A DNA stretch of 29,038 nucleotides. Source: Deferrisomatales bacterium. Lineage in GTDB: Bacteria > Desulfobacterota > Deferrisomatia > Deferrisomatales > JACRMM01. This document shows, piece after piece, positions 1 through 6,000 of the stretch. Position numbers: made by a program. The stretch covers positions 1-29,038 of the forward strand of contig JAWSUI010000046.1 in NCBI GenBank assembly GCA_033551855.1, in the 5' to 3' direction. Every line of letters begins with the position of its first letter. Positions within the stretch are counted from its first letter, which is position 1.

Positions 1-3000
1 TCGAGTCGGTGGATGCGGTGCGGGGCTGCACTCCTGGGCTCCCGGACTCCGCCCCCCCGCCTCCCCCACCCGGCCGTTTCCGCGATGGGCCTCTAATCCG
101 GGCGCAGGAGACAGAAGCTCCAGGGCCGGACGTGGAACCACACCTCCGTGCCCTCCTCCATCGGGTACTCCCGGGCGGCCCGGATGTTGAGCCAGGCGTC
201 GAGCCTGAGCCCGCCGACCCGGAGGCGCACCAGGCGGTAGTGACCGAGGTCCGCCCAGCCCTCCACGACCCCCAGGAGAAGGTTCCGCTGGCGCGCGGTG
301 TCCGGCGGGCGGGTGGGGCGCAGCAGGATCACTTCCTCGGGCCGGATTCCGGCGACCACGGGGCTTCCCTCGGCGAATTCCGGGTGCGGCGTGACCTCGA
401 AGGCGATCCCGGTCCCGTCGAGGGTGAGGCGGTGGTACCCCTTCGGGTCCCGGGGGCCGAGCCGGCCCGGGTAGAGGTTCTGGAGCATCAGGAACCGCGC
501 CACCCGGAGGTTGACCGGCCGGTTGTAGAGCTCGCCCGGGCGGCCCCGTTGCTCGATCCGCCCCGCCATCAGGATGGCCATGTGGTCGGCCATCAGGAAC
601 GCCTCTTCGGGGTCGTGGGTCACCTGGATGAGGGTGAGGCCCAGGCGGCGCTGCAGGTCCCGGAACTCCACCTGCAGGCGGCGGCGCAACGCGGCATCCA
701 GGGCCGAAAACGGCTCGTCCATGAAGAGAACCCGGGGCTCGGTCACGAGGGCGCGGGCGAGGGCGACCCGCTGGCGCTCGCCGCCCGAGAGGGTGCGCAC
801 GTCCCGGCGGTCGATCACCGGCCCGAGGTCGAGGAGCTCCGCCCACCGCGCGAGCCGGCGCGCGGCGTCCGCCGGGGGGCGGCCCCGGGCCCGGAGCCCG
901 AAGAGCACGTTGTCCCGCACGGAGAGGTGCGGGAAGAGCGCGAGGTCCTGGGGCACGTAGGCCACCTGCCGCTCCTCGGGGGGCAGCCGGGTGGCATCCC
1001 GGCCGCCGAGGAGCACCCGGCCCGCCTCGGGCCGGCGGATGCCGAGAAGCCCCTCGAGGAGCAGCGTCTTGCCGGCCCCGGAGGGCCCCAGCACGAAGTA
1101 GCTCTCCCCGGGCTCCACGGCGAGGTCGATGTCCTCCAGGAGGAACGAGCCGAAACGGAGGGAGAGGCCCTCGCAGCGGATCAACGGAATCCCCCGAGCA
1201 GACGGACCGCGGCGAGGGCGAGGAGCCCGATGGCGGAGAGGAGGAGCATGAGGGCTACCGCCCCCCCCACGTCCACGGAGGCCAGCCGGAGGTAGATGGC
1301 CACCGGCACGGTCTCGGTCTTCCCCGGCACGGCGCCGGCCAGCGTAACCGTGGCGCCGAACTCCCCCACCGACCGGGCCCAGCCCAGGATGAAGGCGGCC
1401 ACGAGACCCCGGCGGGCCAGGGGCAGGGTGACCCTGCGGAAGGCGCCCCAAGGGGTGCAGCCCAGGAACCGGGCGACCTGCTCGTAGCGGACGTCCACGT
1501 CCTGGTAGGAGGCCTTGAGCACCCGGGTGGCGAGGGCCAGGGCCACGGTGAACTGGGCCAGCACGATGCCGGGCACCTCGAAGACGAAGCGCAGCAGGTG
1601 CTCTTCGACCCACTGGCCGCCGGACGTCCGGAAGAAGAGGAGCCACGAGACGCCGACCGCCACCGGCGAGAGGACCATGGGCAGGTCCAGGAGCACGTCC
1701 ACGACGGCCGCTCCCGGGAATCGGTACCGCGCCAGGCCGTAGGCGGCGGGCACCGCCAGGCAGAGGGCGAGGCAGGTGGCGACCGTCGCGGTCCCGAGGC
1801 TCAGGGCCACCGCCTGGCGCACGTGGGGTTGCCCCAGGGCCGCCAGCGGTTTCCGCAGACCTGCCCAGCCCACCTGAGAGGCGAGGATGAGCCCCACCAC
1901 CAGGAGCGAGGCGAGCACCGCCGCGGCGAGAAGCGCCGGGAAGGCCTTCCGCCCCAACTCCTACCTCCAGGAAGCGGGCAGCGGCCACTCGCCCCCGACG
2001 GGGGTGTCCGGGCGGGCCCGCTTCCGAGCCTCGGCCAGATCCGTCAAGTAGCCGTGAGCCCGAAAGATCTTCTGCCCCTCCGCACTGACCAGGTACGCGA
2101 GGAAGGCCCGGGCGAGCTCCGGCTCCCGGGGGAAGGCCGAGACGGCGGCCGGGATGTAGCCGATGCGGGTCACCTCGTCGGGCGGGTAGTAGACCGTCTC
2201 GACGCGGTCCGGGTCCCACTCCTCGAAGACGTCCCACCCGATCACCGCATCCACCAGGCCCATGGAGATCATCTGGGCGGTCTTCTCGCAGGACTCGGCC
2301 TGGTTCACCACGTTCTTGAGGACGGCCTCCGTGAGCCCGCGGGCCTCCAGGGCCTCCACGGCGTAGAGGCCCACGCACACGGTCTCCGGCCGGGCGATCC
2401 CCACACGGAGGCCCGGGCGGGCCAGATCCTCGAGGTCGTGGATCTTCTTGGGGTTTCCCCGCTGCACGTTGATCGCCGGGATGAGGTAGACCACCCGGAC
2501 CTCGGTCGGCGCGTCCACCAGCCCCTTGCGCTTGGCCAGCTCCATGTAGTCCGAGGAGCCGGGGAAGTACACGTCCCCGCGGCGCAGGAGCTCCATCTGG
2601 GAGAGCACCGTCCCCGACCCCCCGAGGTGCAGGAAGACGCGTGCCCCGGTCTCCCCCTCGAAACGCCGGGCGGCGGCCTCCAGGGCCGGCTTCGAGGCCG
2701 AGCCCGCGAAGACCTCGAGGGACCGGCCCGACCACTGCCCGGCCTGGACCGGCGCGCCGAGCGCCAGGGCCGCCAGTACCGCAAGGACCGTGCCACACCC
2801 GCCTTGCCGCATGAGACCTCCTCCTTCATCCCCCTCCGTCGGTGCCGCCCGCACCCCGGCCCTGTCCCTCCCCGCTGCGCACCTCCCCCTTCAAGGGGGA
2901 GGCCGGGAGGGGGATGGGTCACCGGAGCCCGAGGCGGCCGCGGGGAGCTCCAGAATCACCCCCCCCGGCGGCACGACGACCGTCACCTCGGAGCCGGCCC

Positions 3001-6000
3001 CCAGGGTCAACGCGTCGGCGCTCTCCCGGGGGAGCAGGAGGGACAGCAGGCCGCCCGGGGTCTCGACGTCCACCCGGGCCACGGCCCCGCCGGCCCCGAC
3101 ACCCAGCACCCGGCCCGGCAGGCGGTTCGGTCTCGGCCCGTGCCGGGCCGAGAGGGACGCCGCAGGGGGTGCGCTCGCACCGGAGGGCCGCAGCACCCTC
3201 TCCCGCCACGCGGCGAGCCACCCCAGCCCCGCTTCCACGAAGCCCTCCTGCAGGGCCAGGACCCACGCCCCGATCCCCGGCGAGGCTCCGGCGCGGGCCC
3301 GTAGATGCTCGAGGCGCCGCCGGAGGACCTCGGCCTGGGCGTCCATGAGGTCGGCCTGCCCCGGCAGCCCGAGGCGGTGCAGGAAGTGGAGCTTCAGGAG
3401 GAGCTCCACCCGAAGCCCCCGCACCGAACCCGCCGGCCGCCGCACCCAGGCCGAGAACCGCTCCCGGCCGCGGTCCGTCACCTCGAAGACCCTCCGGGCG
3501 GGGCCCCCCGCCCCCTCCCTCAGGGTCCCGCGGACGAGGCCCTGGGCCTCCAGCGACTTGAGCAGGGCGTAGAGCTGGCTCTTCGCCAAGCGCCCGACCG
3601 CGGCCAGGTCCCCCCCTTCCCCGAAGTGCGCGGCCAGCTCGTAGCCGTGGCAGGGCCCTTCGTGGAGCAGCCCGAGGAGCGTGTGCTCGAAGACCCGTCG
3701 TTCCCTCACCGGCGGTCTCATCCAGGTTGAACTAGTCTGAATCGGACTACCGGGAGGCTACCGGACCGTTCCCCCTGCCGCAAGCGGAAATCGGGGGGAG
3801 CGAAACGGATCTCTACGACCGGGGGGGAAGGTCCGGCCTCTCCCCGGTCCGGCTCACGGCCCCTGGCGGCCCTCCAGGACGTCCGACACCCACGAGAAGG
3901 CGGCGGCCGCCGTGGGGAACCCCACGGTGCTCACCAGGAGGTTGATGACCTGGTAGAGCTCCTCCCGGGTGGCCCCTGCCTCCAGGGCGCGGCGGGCGTG
4001 GGAGTGGGTGGAACCCTCGCTGCGCCGGGCGATGGCCGCCGCGAGTTGGACGAGGTGGGTGGACTTCTCGTCCAGCGGGCCGCTCTCCCGGGCCAGGCGC
4101 GCGGCCTTCTCCAGGGCCTCGAACATCTCCGGGAAGAGGGTTCGGAAGTCGCGGAAGTTCTTGGGGTACGTCGGCGCTGCCATGGGGCACCTCCACGTCT
4201 CGGGCCGCGACCTGGCACGGTCGGCTGGGGGGATGGGAAGGTCCCAGTATTCCGAACCCCCCTGGAATCGCAAGGACCCGCGACGCTCTGGGTCCCCCGA
4301 AAAGCGCCAGAGTAACTGACGGCGGATACCGGGCGCTTCAGGCTCCGCCGAGGAACTGCTCCTCCAGGAAGTCGCACACCGGGCCCGGGTGGTCCAGGGG
4401 GAAGAGCGGCACGGGCAGCGGCAGGGCCTCGTCGCTCACCACGGCGATCAGGCGGTGATCCAGGAGCCTCCCGTCCCGCGCGGCGCACAGGAGCTCCGGG
4501 CTGCGCGCGGCGCGGTGGAGCTCGATCTTGGGGAGGTTGCCGGTCTTGTACCCCTCGGTCACCACCAGGTCCACCTCGGTCATGAACCGGTAGATGATCT
4601 CGTCCAGGGTCATCTCGCCCCGGGCGTTGGGGTGCACCATGGCGAGCTTCTCCGCCGAGGAGACCACCATGGGGGAGGCGCCGGCCCGGGTGAGCCTCCA
4701 GGAGTCCTTGCCCTCGTGGTCTATCTCGAACCGGTGGGCGTCGTGCTTGATGGTGCCCACCCGGTAGCCCCGGCGGGTGAGCTCGGCGATCGCCTTCTCG
4801 AGGAAGGTGGTCTTGCCCGTGCCCGACTTGGCCACGAAGGAGACCGCGGGGGGGCCGTAGCTGCGAAGCCGCGCCAGGTGGAGCCGGCACTCGTCGAGAT
4901 CCGCGTGGGAGTGGACGTTGCGAAAGGTCAGCCCCGAGGGGTCGAGGGCCGTGAGGTCCTCGCCGTTCACGATCCGGGTGCGCACGTCGGAGATGAAGTC
5001 CAGGACCTTGAGGTTCCCCCGCCGGATCCGCTCCTCCATGGGGGCCACGCACGCCTTCGAGTAGACCGCGCACAGGGGTTCGAAGCCGCCCCGGCTGCGG
5101 GGCACCACCACGTCCCACCCCTGGCGCTGAGCGTAGAGGTGCCGGATCACCCGGGGGTGGAGGAAGGGCATGTCGGCGCCTACCACGAACGCATACCGGC
5201 TCGACACGTGCTTGAGGCCCGTGGTGATGGCCCCCAGGAGCGCCGCCCCGGGGTACTCGTCGTCCACCGCCCGCAGACCGATCGTCGTGAAGGGGGCCGG
5301 GTCCTCGGCGACCACCACGACCTGGTCGAAGAACCCCTCGAGGATCCGATGGGTCCGGTGGATGAGGCTCTCCCCCTGGAGCTCCCAGCTCCAGCGGTCG
5401 TCCCGGCCGTCGGCGATGAGAAGGGCAGTTCGGATGTCTCTCATGGGGCCTCCGCGGCTACGCCTTCTGGAAAGCAGGGTCCCGAAAAGGATGCTGTCCC
5501 CTTTTGCGTCAGAACTCTCCGGGCAATTGTCGCGACCCGGGTGAGGCACCTACGCCGGCCCCCCAGGTTCTGAATCGGCCCGGGTCCTCGCAGCACCCTC
5601 TCCCGATAACCCGTGCTTCAGGCCAGCAGTTTCAGGATGTTTTCCCGGGTGAGGAATGCCGCCTCCGCCGGGGTCTCGAGAAACGGCCTCACATCCGCGA
5701 CGACCTGCTCCCAGGGGAGTTGGCCGATCCGGTCGCCGATCACCGCGCGCCAGGAACGGGGAGTGAGCACTTCCCCATCCCAGCCCGTCTGGGCCAGCGC
5801 GTTGTTGAGGAGCACGAGATTGGGTTCGGGCCAGGAGGGATCGCTCCGGTACCACAGCAGGTCGTAGAGGTCGCGTCCTTTGGCGTAAGGGCGGCACAGG
5901 ACGGCGTGGAGCTTGCCCGCAAGGAGCGAGGCGCGGTCGTGGTGCTGGAGGTGGAGCAGCACGTGGCGCCGGACCACGGTGGTGGTGAGTCCTGCCCCCT

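Follow-up and report, generated by a model that had tools for sequence, protein, structure and literature searches.

The analysed window, a 29,038-nucleotide stretch of a Deferrisomatales genome, carries on its minus strand a regulator gene (2891..3709) that joins a PadR-type and a TOBE domain and stands at the head of a molybdate transporter operon. The downstream genes lie on the same strand and code for the molybdate-binding protein ModA (1961..2812; TIGR01256, 71.2 bits, above cut-off), a ModB-type permease (1181..1957) that scores under the modB cut-off, and a ModC/WtpC-like ATPase (93..1184). Upstream, also on the minus strand, are a CMD-family gene (3854..4183) and a MobA-MobB fusion (4338..5549), in the same order as in another genome (G007). 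The fusion of the two domains in one open reading frame, both matched by Pfam, its place before modABC and the two upstream genes had been described in an earlier note and were all found again. The length of 276 aa given there corresponds to the reading frame opened by an upstream ATG (2891-3721), from which residues are numbered here; this frame exists, but the likely start is the GTG at 3709, where the starts of the homologues align, giving a protein of 272 aa with its ribosome site at 3717-3723.

The genome harbors no ModE-type regulator, as the note had stated: the best match to the ModE model (TIGR00637) is a LysR protein that scores 21.6 bits, below the cut-off of 98.5, and the PadR-TOBE gene does not match it at all. 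No TunR and no TaoR-type protein was found in the genome either. TunR combines a recombinase fold with a TOBE domain. TaoR joins an HTH to a PBP domain (PMC11980592), and Pfam detected neither recombinase fold plus TOBE nor HTH plus PBP-like domain on the PadR-TOBE protein. The four TOBE matches in the genome are the PadR-TOBE gene and three ABC ATPases, leaving no second gene that couples a DNA-binding domain to TOBE, again as reported, and no stand-alone Mop among the matches of this search. The Moco riboswitch noted before the second Mo/W transporter cluster was likewise confirmed (C25:14734-14855), and the translations identify this cluster as tup-type (porin-tupA-tupB-tupC-tupA2).

The PadR match (PF03551, 53.1 bits, cut-off 27) covers residues 15-90 and corresponds to a winged helix-turn-helix (3452..3679, minus strand) that aligns with the Bacillus subtilis PadR structure 5x11. 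The DNA-binding residues are kept (Y27, S48, Q49, Y51 and R76, for Y20, S39, Q40, Y42 and K67 in B. subtilis), and Y27 and Y51 are invariant in all 42 operon-linked PadR proteins. A PadR-type winged helix had been proposed and is present, but it does not stand alone: the gene encodes a complete PadR of subfamily 1, whose helical dimer domain extends to about residue 176. These C-terminal helices (residues ~96-176; 3194..3436, minus strand) contain the invariant residues P96, R101, R104, K110 and W168, and the structure model predicts them at 100-116, 122-143 and 150-176 with a pLDDT of ~90; Pfam gives a weak Vir_act_alpha_C match at residues 104-146. The model aligns with 8ioi (Z 14.7 over 171 residues) and with 5x11 (Z 13.9 over 93), and a variable Pro/Ala linker of low confidence (3137..3193, minus strand) follows the helices. 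The same region holds a candidate effector pocket. R101 is shared by every one of the 42 operon-linked proteins and by 144 of 149 additional relatives, an Arg that none of five aligned solved subfamily-1 PadRs has at this position, and it adjoins the position of the effector ligand Thr93' of B. subtilis PadR; the alignment to 5x11 stops short of helix 7. A second candidate pocket Arg, at position 158, is found in 26 of 27 TOBE-less proteins and is replaced by Gln in 14 of 15 TOBE-bearing ones.

Upstream of the gene lies a perfect palindrome, TAGTC-N7-GACTA (predicted operator site 1, 3733..3749, unstranded), and the genome has no other exact match to TAKTC-N7-GAMTA; a degenerate predicted site with three mismatches (site 2, 3718..3734, unstranded) stands 15 bp on from it and overlaps the ribosome site. 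The putative sigma-70 promoter (3755..3783, minus strand; -35 at 3778-3783, 17-bp spacer, -10 at 3755-3760) was placed by eye in a four-genome alignment, and a consensus scan for promoters and terminators detected neither, this promoter included; the intergenic hairpin is not significant (z -1.36). The top palindrome found de novo in TOBE-less upstream regions was a perfect TATTC-N7-GAATA, present in 17 of 28. Perfect TAKTC-N7-GAMTA sites, with a K/M degeneracy picked after the window's site had been seen, occur in 22 of 32 regions before PadR genes (shuffle mean 0.01, maximum 1), against three in 293,039 other positions of the same loci. The predicted operator is mostly tandem, with two sites 15 bp apart, and spans the -10/start region; of 29 regions scored, 10 have it beginning 17 nt downstream of a TTGAC hexamer. 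When profiles were trained without the TOBE-bearing genomes, each of 24 settings placed the window site between ranks 1 and 5 across the 4.24 Mb of its genome, and 0.17 sites equal to it occur per shuffled genome. It scores low (3.9) in a single-site profile that includes the spacer columns because the training sites are AT-rich, and operators were scored on the core only after this result.

The window site precedes the only PadR above the Pfam cut-off in its genome. In three genomes a predicted operator also precedes modABC in trans, namely in G272, whose PadR adjoins efp, in G377, with a tandem, and in G215, with one mismatch. None lies before the modABC of G347, which a ModE-N gene leads, or before two operons whose leading gene was identified by eye as a TaoR-like regulator; nine of eleven other modA/tupA regions have no site near the operon start, and the tup cluster of the window's own genome has none among the matches listed. 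The 20-bp pattern is not enriched genome-wide (53 matches across 34 genomes, where the reversed control gave 110), and sites lay inside ORFs or before unrelated genes in 15 of 21 regions inspected, suggesting that the regulons are small and that single distant sites are unreliable. A large regulon in the window's own genome was rejected, as the next-best sites (C24:13910 and C18:32686) adjoin toxin-antitoxin-like and unrelated genes.

Sequence comparison shows a PadR of two domains whose DNA-binding residues are intact, and a palindrome that is conserved on the promoters of the gene and its relatives. The predicted operator over the promoter, conserved in cis and in trans, supports the earlier proposal of a modABC repressor that stands in for ModE with a different DNA-binding fold, and the protein is very likely a repressor of the mod genes. 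PadR dimers would bind TAKTC-N7-GAMTA sites and block initiation, thereby setting molybdate/tungstate import as well as expression of the regulator's own gene. B. subtilis PadR (5x11/5x13, PMC5728393), AphA, VanR, Rv1176c and Rv0047c share the two-domain fold, the Tyr/Tyr/basic DNA motif and a palindromic operator that lies on the promoter and spans about as much DNA as the one predicted here, but the present family differs from them by its operator sequence, mostly in a 15-bp tandem, its targets among Mo/W uptake genes, the clade-specific Arg101 and the appended TOBE.

Each PadR-TOBE chain has one TOBE domain (PF03459, residues 198-252, 35.2 bits), delimited as a degenerate TOBE/Mop domain at residues ~196-260 (2942..3136, minus strand), with ModG and MopII as its nearest solved relatives (Foldseek: 1gug, 1h9j). 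The two-fold anion site of Mop and ModE consists of Ser4, Arg6, Ser/Thr40, Lys60 and Ala/Ser61 (PMC11980592, PMC11672702). Here Mop positions 4, 6, 40, 43, 60 and 61 read P, P, P, S, P and P, with proline at all five residues of the site, and none of the 15 TOBE-bearing homologues keeps Ser4, Arg6 or Lys60, Thr40 being present in one. The motif is intact in Mop genes, TupC of the same genome keeps all but Arg6, and the C-terminal TOBE of the ModC/WtpC-like ATPase of the window also lacks it. Among the homologues N199, G212, R216 and E233 are invariant, which leaves room for an unusual site, and Mop position 22 is mostly aliphatic. A strand-swapped self-dimer of the domain is predicted at 0.59 (best control 0.27; runs agree at 97%, pLDDT at least 77); among solved proteins, 20 of 30 homodimers and one of 23 monomers attain this mark. 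The prediction may reflect the model's memory of solved Mop dimers. The domain evolves with a dN/dS of 0.28-0.50, against 0.07-0.17 for the wHTH, and was gained once and late inside a wide TOBE-less clade (support 94/97). No shorter proteins resembling it were found by search. The molbindins Mop, ModG and Tub (1gug, 1h9j, 9beb; PMC11980592) share the fold, the invariant Asn7 and the strand-swapped dimer, predicted here, but are not fused to a regulator and have Ser4, Arg6, Ser40, Lys60 and Ala/Ser61 where this protein has prolines. E. coli ModE (PMC11672702) is likewise a one-component repressor heading modABC with a TOBE/Mop-type domain, but its wHTH is of LysR type, it has two TOBE domains and another operator, and five of its six anion ligands are replaced by proline here.

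The role of a canonical oxyanion sensor was rejected for the TOBE because of the prolines at the ligand positions, and the domain is probably no canonical Mo/W sensor. The note had taken it for the Mo/W sensor, a view not supported by these positions, by the TOBE-less relatives, which lead the same operons and share the operator, or by the single late gain. Having lost the metal-gripping residues, the TOBE probably leaves the reading of the signal to another part of the protein, and a Pfam TOBE match need not imply molybdate sensing. We consider it improbable that the TOBE binds molybdate or tungstate and thereby moves PadR onto or away from the operator, in the manner of the Mop domains of ModE; such a sensor would have to work through a non-canonical site or through the three-fold site that a TOBE hexamer forms from backbone atoms alone. 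The kinship with ModG and MopII, the retention of the domain in 15 proteins under purifying selection, the invariant G212, R216 and E233, and the occurrence in G377 of padR beside a separate mop gene for an intact Mop are all consistent with such a sensor, and the three-fold site, made of backbone atoms of residues 20-22 (PMC11980592), may be there whatever the side chains. However, the five prolines remove backbone NH donors as well as side chains from the two-fold site, a TOBE-less relative heads the orthologous operon in G014 with the same operator, and a PadR dimer supplies two TOBEs for a three-fold site that needs six. In our reading the domain was gained a single time, with a mop gene nearby as the probable source, has lost its main anion site, and persists as a predicted self-pairing module under relaxed selection.

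The homologue search reproduced the 18 proteins reported earlier, 15 of them full-length. The view of a small new family is not supported, as the small size is confined to proteins with a TOBE: a search with the PadR body among representatives at 50% identity gave 427 relatives at E<=1e-10. The clade is present in 33 of the 401 genomes sampled from the phylum and probably extends past it. In all three TOBE-bearing loci the regulator is followed by mod genes, which encode two types of ModA. Of the 33 TOBE-less loci, 16 stand before genes for molybdate transport or storage (15 before modABC-type genes, one before an intact mop), 11 before an SsuA/NMT1-like ABC transporter, three before unrelated genes and one before a TonB receptor, and two stop at a contig edge. 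PadR-YqeC fusions also exist, yqeB and padR form an operon in G368, and the Mo/W-linked partners of the clade further include modABC of several types, mop, a MoCF-domain gene, FmdE and, in mod operons, DUF364. Of 34 PadR genomes, 13 have a ModE-type HTH gene, as do 181 of the 401 sampled, which gives no clear pattern of replacement, and mutual exclusion of PadR and ModE was rejected.

A repressor governed by a protein partner, ModC or Mop, docking via the TOBE in place of a small ligand, as MalK holds MalT, is very improbable: the TOBE keeps its fold and its predicted pairing strands, the window's ModC has an OB/TOBE tail and padR adjoins mop in G377, but in G004 the ModC encoded after the TOBE-bearing gene is 248 aa long and lacks such a tail, the window's genome has no stand-alone Mop, and most of the clade has no TOBE. 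Control of the importers by a signal outside Mo/W status, for example a sulfur, phosphate or aromatic anion, is also unlikely. Characterised subfamily-1 PadRs bind aromatic acids (PMC5728393), the SsuA/NMT1-like binding protein comes next in one third of the TOBE-less loci and ModE-type genes coexist in the 13 genomes mentioned, but the targets and fusions are mostly Mo/W genes, and modABC and the SsuA-like transporter interchange in one slot among close relatives of one family. The SsuA-like transporter as sole Mo/W importer was rejected: modA is missing in nine of the 11 genomes with such a locus, yet WtpA occurs elsewhere in ten.

The best explanation, to which we give a probability of roughly 0.6, is an autoregulated padR-modABC repressor that would bind a Mo/W-linked anion in the PadR pocket and carries a degenerate TOBE. 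The anion, molybdate/tungstate or a molybdopterin species, may bind between the two PadR domains near Arg101, and a Mo/W-linked effector in the PadR body is somewhat favoured. That the family senses a molybdopterin species in the interdomain pocket, and not the free oxyanion, is tentative and rather doubtful; metal-free molybdopterin would then pile up when the metal is scarce and release the repressor, as is usual for PadR. If true, this would account for the yqeB/yqeC, mobAB, MoCF and FmdE links, the invariant Arg and the decay of the captured Mop, and would make the SsuA/NMT1-like transporter a new Mo/W or cofactor importer and the family a protein counterpart of the Moco riboswitch. That riboswitch (RF01055, PMC2408646) likewise controls Mo/W transport genes, and the same genome uses one for tupABC; it is an RNA acting after initiation, whereas a protein and a predicted DNA operator act on modABC here. 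TunR and TaoR (for TaoR, PMC11980592) resemble the PadR clade as non-ModE regulators of Mo/W uptake in anaerobes, defined by conserved gene order and operator, but their DNA-binding folds are unrelated and both have a recognised oxyanion-binding domain, which most of the clade lacks.

Searches of the literature listed no paper that deals with PadR control of Mo/W uptake, although the supplement of PMC11980592 that probably covers InterPro TOBE architectures may list PadR-TOBE, and a PadR family with its own DNA site, wider than the TOBE-bearing form, is apparently undescribed. The predicted operator offers a handle for a binding test and a route to Mo/W-linked genes such as the SsuA/NMT1-like importer, DUF364, FmdE and TrmO-like genes, and any compact Mo/W switch would have to be built on the PadR body with its candidate effector pocket. 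To our knowledge, the known protein sensors of Mo/W, ModE, TunR and TaoR, all have a recognisable oxyanion-binding domain; the PadR clade would add a further Mo/W-linked family of regulators, with a defined predicted operator and mostly without such a domain. Finally, a metagenome scan returned one distant locus.

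The PadR-TOBE gene occupies 2891-3721 on the minus strand when read from the ATG at 3721, although the GTG at 3709 is the likely start codon. Pfam places a PadR domain at residues 15-90 (53.1 bits, numbered from the ATG) and a single TOBE domain at residues 198-252 (35.2 bits). It is preceded by a CMD gene and a MobA-MobB gene, and downstream the same strand carries modA, a modB-type permease gene and a WtpC/ModC-like ATPase gene; the modA product scores above the TIGR01256 cut-off and its closest solved structures are ModA proteins. These domains and this gene order confirm the fusion heading modABC described in an earlier note, whose count of 18 homologues was obtained again, 15 being full-length. 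Searches of the genome (completeness 100%) retrieved no ModE, as that note had claimed, and no TaoR-type protein, and found TOBE only in this gene and three ABC ATPases.

Residues 1-176 form a complete subfamily-1 PadR, with a wHTH and three C-terminal helices (model pLDDT 84), matching 8ioi with a Z of 14.7 across 171 residues; a linker of variable sequence joins this body to the TOBE domain. Y27, S48, Q49, Y51, R76 and R104 align with Y20, S39, Q40, Y42, K67 and K95 of Bacillus subtilis PadR, which contact DNA (PMC5728393). R101 is invariant among the 42 operon-linked proteins, 144 of 149 further relatives have it too, and none of five aligned solved subfamily-1 proteins has Arg there. It adjoins the position equivalent to Thr93', an effector-binding residue of B. 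subtilis PadR (PMC5728393). At position 158, in the last helix, Arg is found in 26/27 TOBE-less proteins and Gln in 14/15 TOBE-bearing ones.

An unbiased palindrome count recovered TATTC-N7-GAATA upstream of 17 of 28 TOBE-less genes. The predicted operator TAKTC-N7-GAMTA is perfect in 22 of 32 upstream regions (mean 0.01 over 200 shuffles) and has at most one mismatch in 26 (mean 0.57, 200 shuffles); four of the 33 TOBE-less places are outside this count. Elsewhere in the loci, 293,039 positions contain three perfect sites, two of them upstream of yqeB-padR and a second modA in one genome, G368. Most upstream regions carry two sites at a 15-bp distance, and the first half-site lies 17 nt past TTGAC, at the -10 position, in 10/29 scored regions. 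This genome has no exact match other than the perfect site of the window, at 3733-3749; the second site there is degenerate and overlaps the ribosome site. In 24/24 settings, tandem profiles whose training set excluded the TOBE-bearing genomes, or the whole class, ranked the window site 1-5 genome-wide, compared with 0.17 equal-scoring sites per genome in 30 locally shuffled genomes. By eye, a -35/-10 pair, which the promoter scanner did not pass, lies immediately upstream of the operator here and in two other TOBE-bearing genomes (G007, G004), so that the operator would cover the transcription start.

Fold, DNA-binding residues and conserved operator support the proposal that this protein represses modABC. 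PadR dimers would occupy the tandem operator and block padR-modABC transcription, including their own. The effector may sit in the PadR interdomain pocket, to which the clade-invariant R101 beside the Thr93' position weakly points. Molybdate or tungstate as co-repressor would fit, as would a pterin intermediate accumulating under metal shortage as inducer, the latter matching the usual PadR polarity. This subfamily-1 PadR would work like ModE, but is itself neither ModE, TunR nor TaoR.

The TOBE domain had been taken for the sensor. Among solved structures, ModG and MopII are nearest to it. The two-fold anion site of Tub comprises the Arg6 and Ala61 backbones, the Ser4 and Lys60 side chains and Ser40, and the ModE ligands are S126, R128, T163, S166, K183 and A184, as given in PMC11980592 and PMC11672702, respectively. 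In the MopII register (position 4 placed by ungapped extension of the alignment), PadR-TOBE carries P196, P198, P231, S234, P251 and P252 at ligand positions. Ser4, Arg6 and Lys60 are each retained in none of the 15 aligned homologues, in which proline occupies position 6 in 11, 40 in 14, 60 in 14 and 61 in 13. The stand-alone Mop genes of the fetched loci retain the motif, and TupC of this genome has Leu at 6 and keeps Ser4, Thr40, Ser43 and Lys60. Judged from these alignments the main anion site is lost, and a molbindin-type sensor is rejected on this comparison; sensing by TOBE, which would then need another site such as a backbone-only three-fold one that sequence does not reveal, is unlikely. 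Four TOBE residues (N199, G212, R216, E233) do not vary. Compared with the wHTH, the domain appears less constrained (dN/dS 0.28-0.50 vs 0.07-0.17 in three pairwise comparisons, rough values from GC-rich codons). TOBE is predicted to self-pair by a Mop-type strand swap (score 0.59 vs 0.27 for the best control, with a mark reached by 20/30 solved homodimers and 1/23 monomers; 97% agreement between runs, pLDDT >= 77), which may be mere likeness because Mop dimers are already solved. Control of the regulator by a protein partner seems very unlikely.

The fusion had been presented as a small new family; its TOBE-bearing group sits inside a wider TOBE-less PadR family, matched in 33 of 401 searched genomes of the phylum. 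In a tree of the PadR part (34 rows; a second, fast tree had 113), the 15 TOBE proteins cluster together (support 94/97) within a 100/100 group that also contains six TOBE-less proteins, some of which may be truncated; by sequence, the fusion is a twig of that family. Mod genes follow PadR-TOBE in 3/3 readable loci, with one ModA type here and in G007 and, in G004, modB-modA-modC of another type. G014, from the same order as our genome, has a 176-aa TOBE-less PadR directly 5' of the orthologous modABC. Among the 33 TOBE-less places, modA is directly next in 12; mod genes follow a porin or DUF364 gene, or stand modB-first, in three; an SsuA/NMT1-like ABC transporter with a WtpC-like ATPase is next in 11, an intact mop in one and a TonB receptor near xanthine-dehydrogenase-family genes in one; unrelated genes are next in three and a contig edge in two. 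A response to a signal unrelated to Mo/W is unlikely. These sequences point to a broader PadR family whose members would repress Mo/W uptake through a defined operator; we found no PadR regulator of Mo/W uptake in the literature searched, most subscription journals lying outside that scope. Mutual exclusion with ModE showed no pattern (ModE-type HTH genes in 13/34 PadR genomes vs 181/401 sampled).

In genome G377, an intact stand-alone mop (L061:6631-6840) lies 111 bp behind a TOBE-less padR, an unfused form of the fusion; this pair is a plausible source of it, though in another subclade. YqeC is fused to PadR in proteins P0076 and P0178, and in P0052 PadR apparently lies behind a YqeB-like domain (by eye; Pfam detected PadR only). 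P0180, with an Anaerolineae name, joins a PBP-like, molybdate-type domain to a PadR without the clade's motif. Chloroflexota is the commonest phylum in the top ESM Atlas cluster (phylum known for 10/55 members).

The SsuA/NMT1-like transporter and its WtpC-like ATPase stand under the same operator at L046:5763-6797 and ten like loci (L049, L051-L053, L056, L060, L063-L065, L069), alternating with modABC in the same slot within one family. ModA is missing from 9/11 of these genomes and WtpA present in 10/11. TupA-like and WtpA matches share one open reading frame of ~580-630 aa in four of the genomes of L035, L056, L060, L063 and L065 (G204:C229, G112:C22, G035:C152, G175:C3), which suggests a TupA-WtpA fusion.

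Operator sites also occur in trans, 5' of modABC in G272 (with an orphan PadR), G377 and G215, and in G377 (9 matches vs 1 control match) precede FmdE, DUF364 and radical-SAM/TrmO-like genes. Genome-wide matches were at chance level (53 vs 110 control), 15 of 21 inspected regions were unrelated, and 9/11 other modA/tupA regions had no site at the operon start, which argues against a wide regulon; the genome-wide profile search yielded no second convincing target in our genome. DUF364-like genes turn up repeatedly in mod operons and behind the operator (L057, L059, L111, L134, L136, L137, L139), and TrmO/TsaA-like genes lie behind sites at L112:5496-6035 and L119:5603-6124, one of them divergent from a molybdopterin-oxidoreductase gene.

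Our genome has a second Mo/W cluster (C25:14734-22061, L075), in which a Moco riboswitch (PMC2408646) is followed by a porin gene, tupA, tupB, tupC and a second tupA. The TOBE motif of this tupC is largely intact. The product of a gene further along resembles a molybdenum storage protein. There are six AOR-family and six molybdopterin-oxidoreductase matches, one of the latter (C5:62003-63274), with one in-frame TGA, being probably a selenocysteine formate dehydrogenase. In the window, an AbiEi/AbiEii type IV toxin-antitoxin pair (5618-7167) lies immediately upstream of mobAB, and an arsenic-resistance-like region (7565-18509) includes an ArsA ATPase (Pfam) and, by eye, radical SAM, universal stress protein, Acr3, two ArsR, thioredoxin-like and permease genes.
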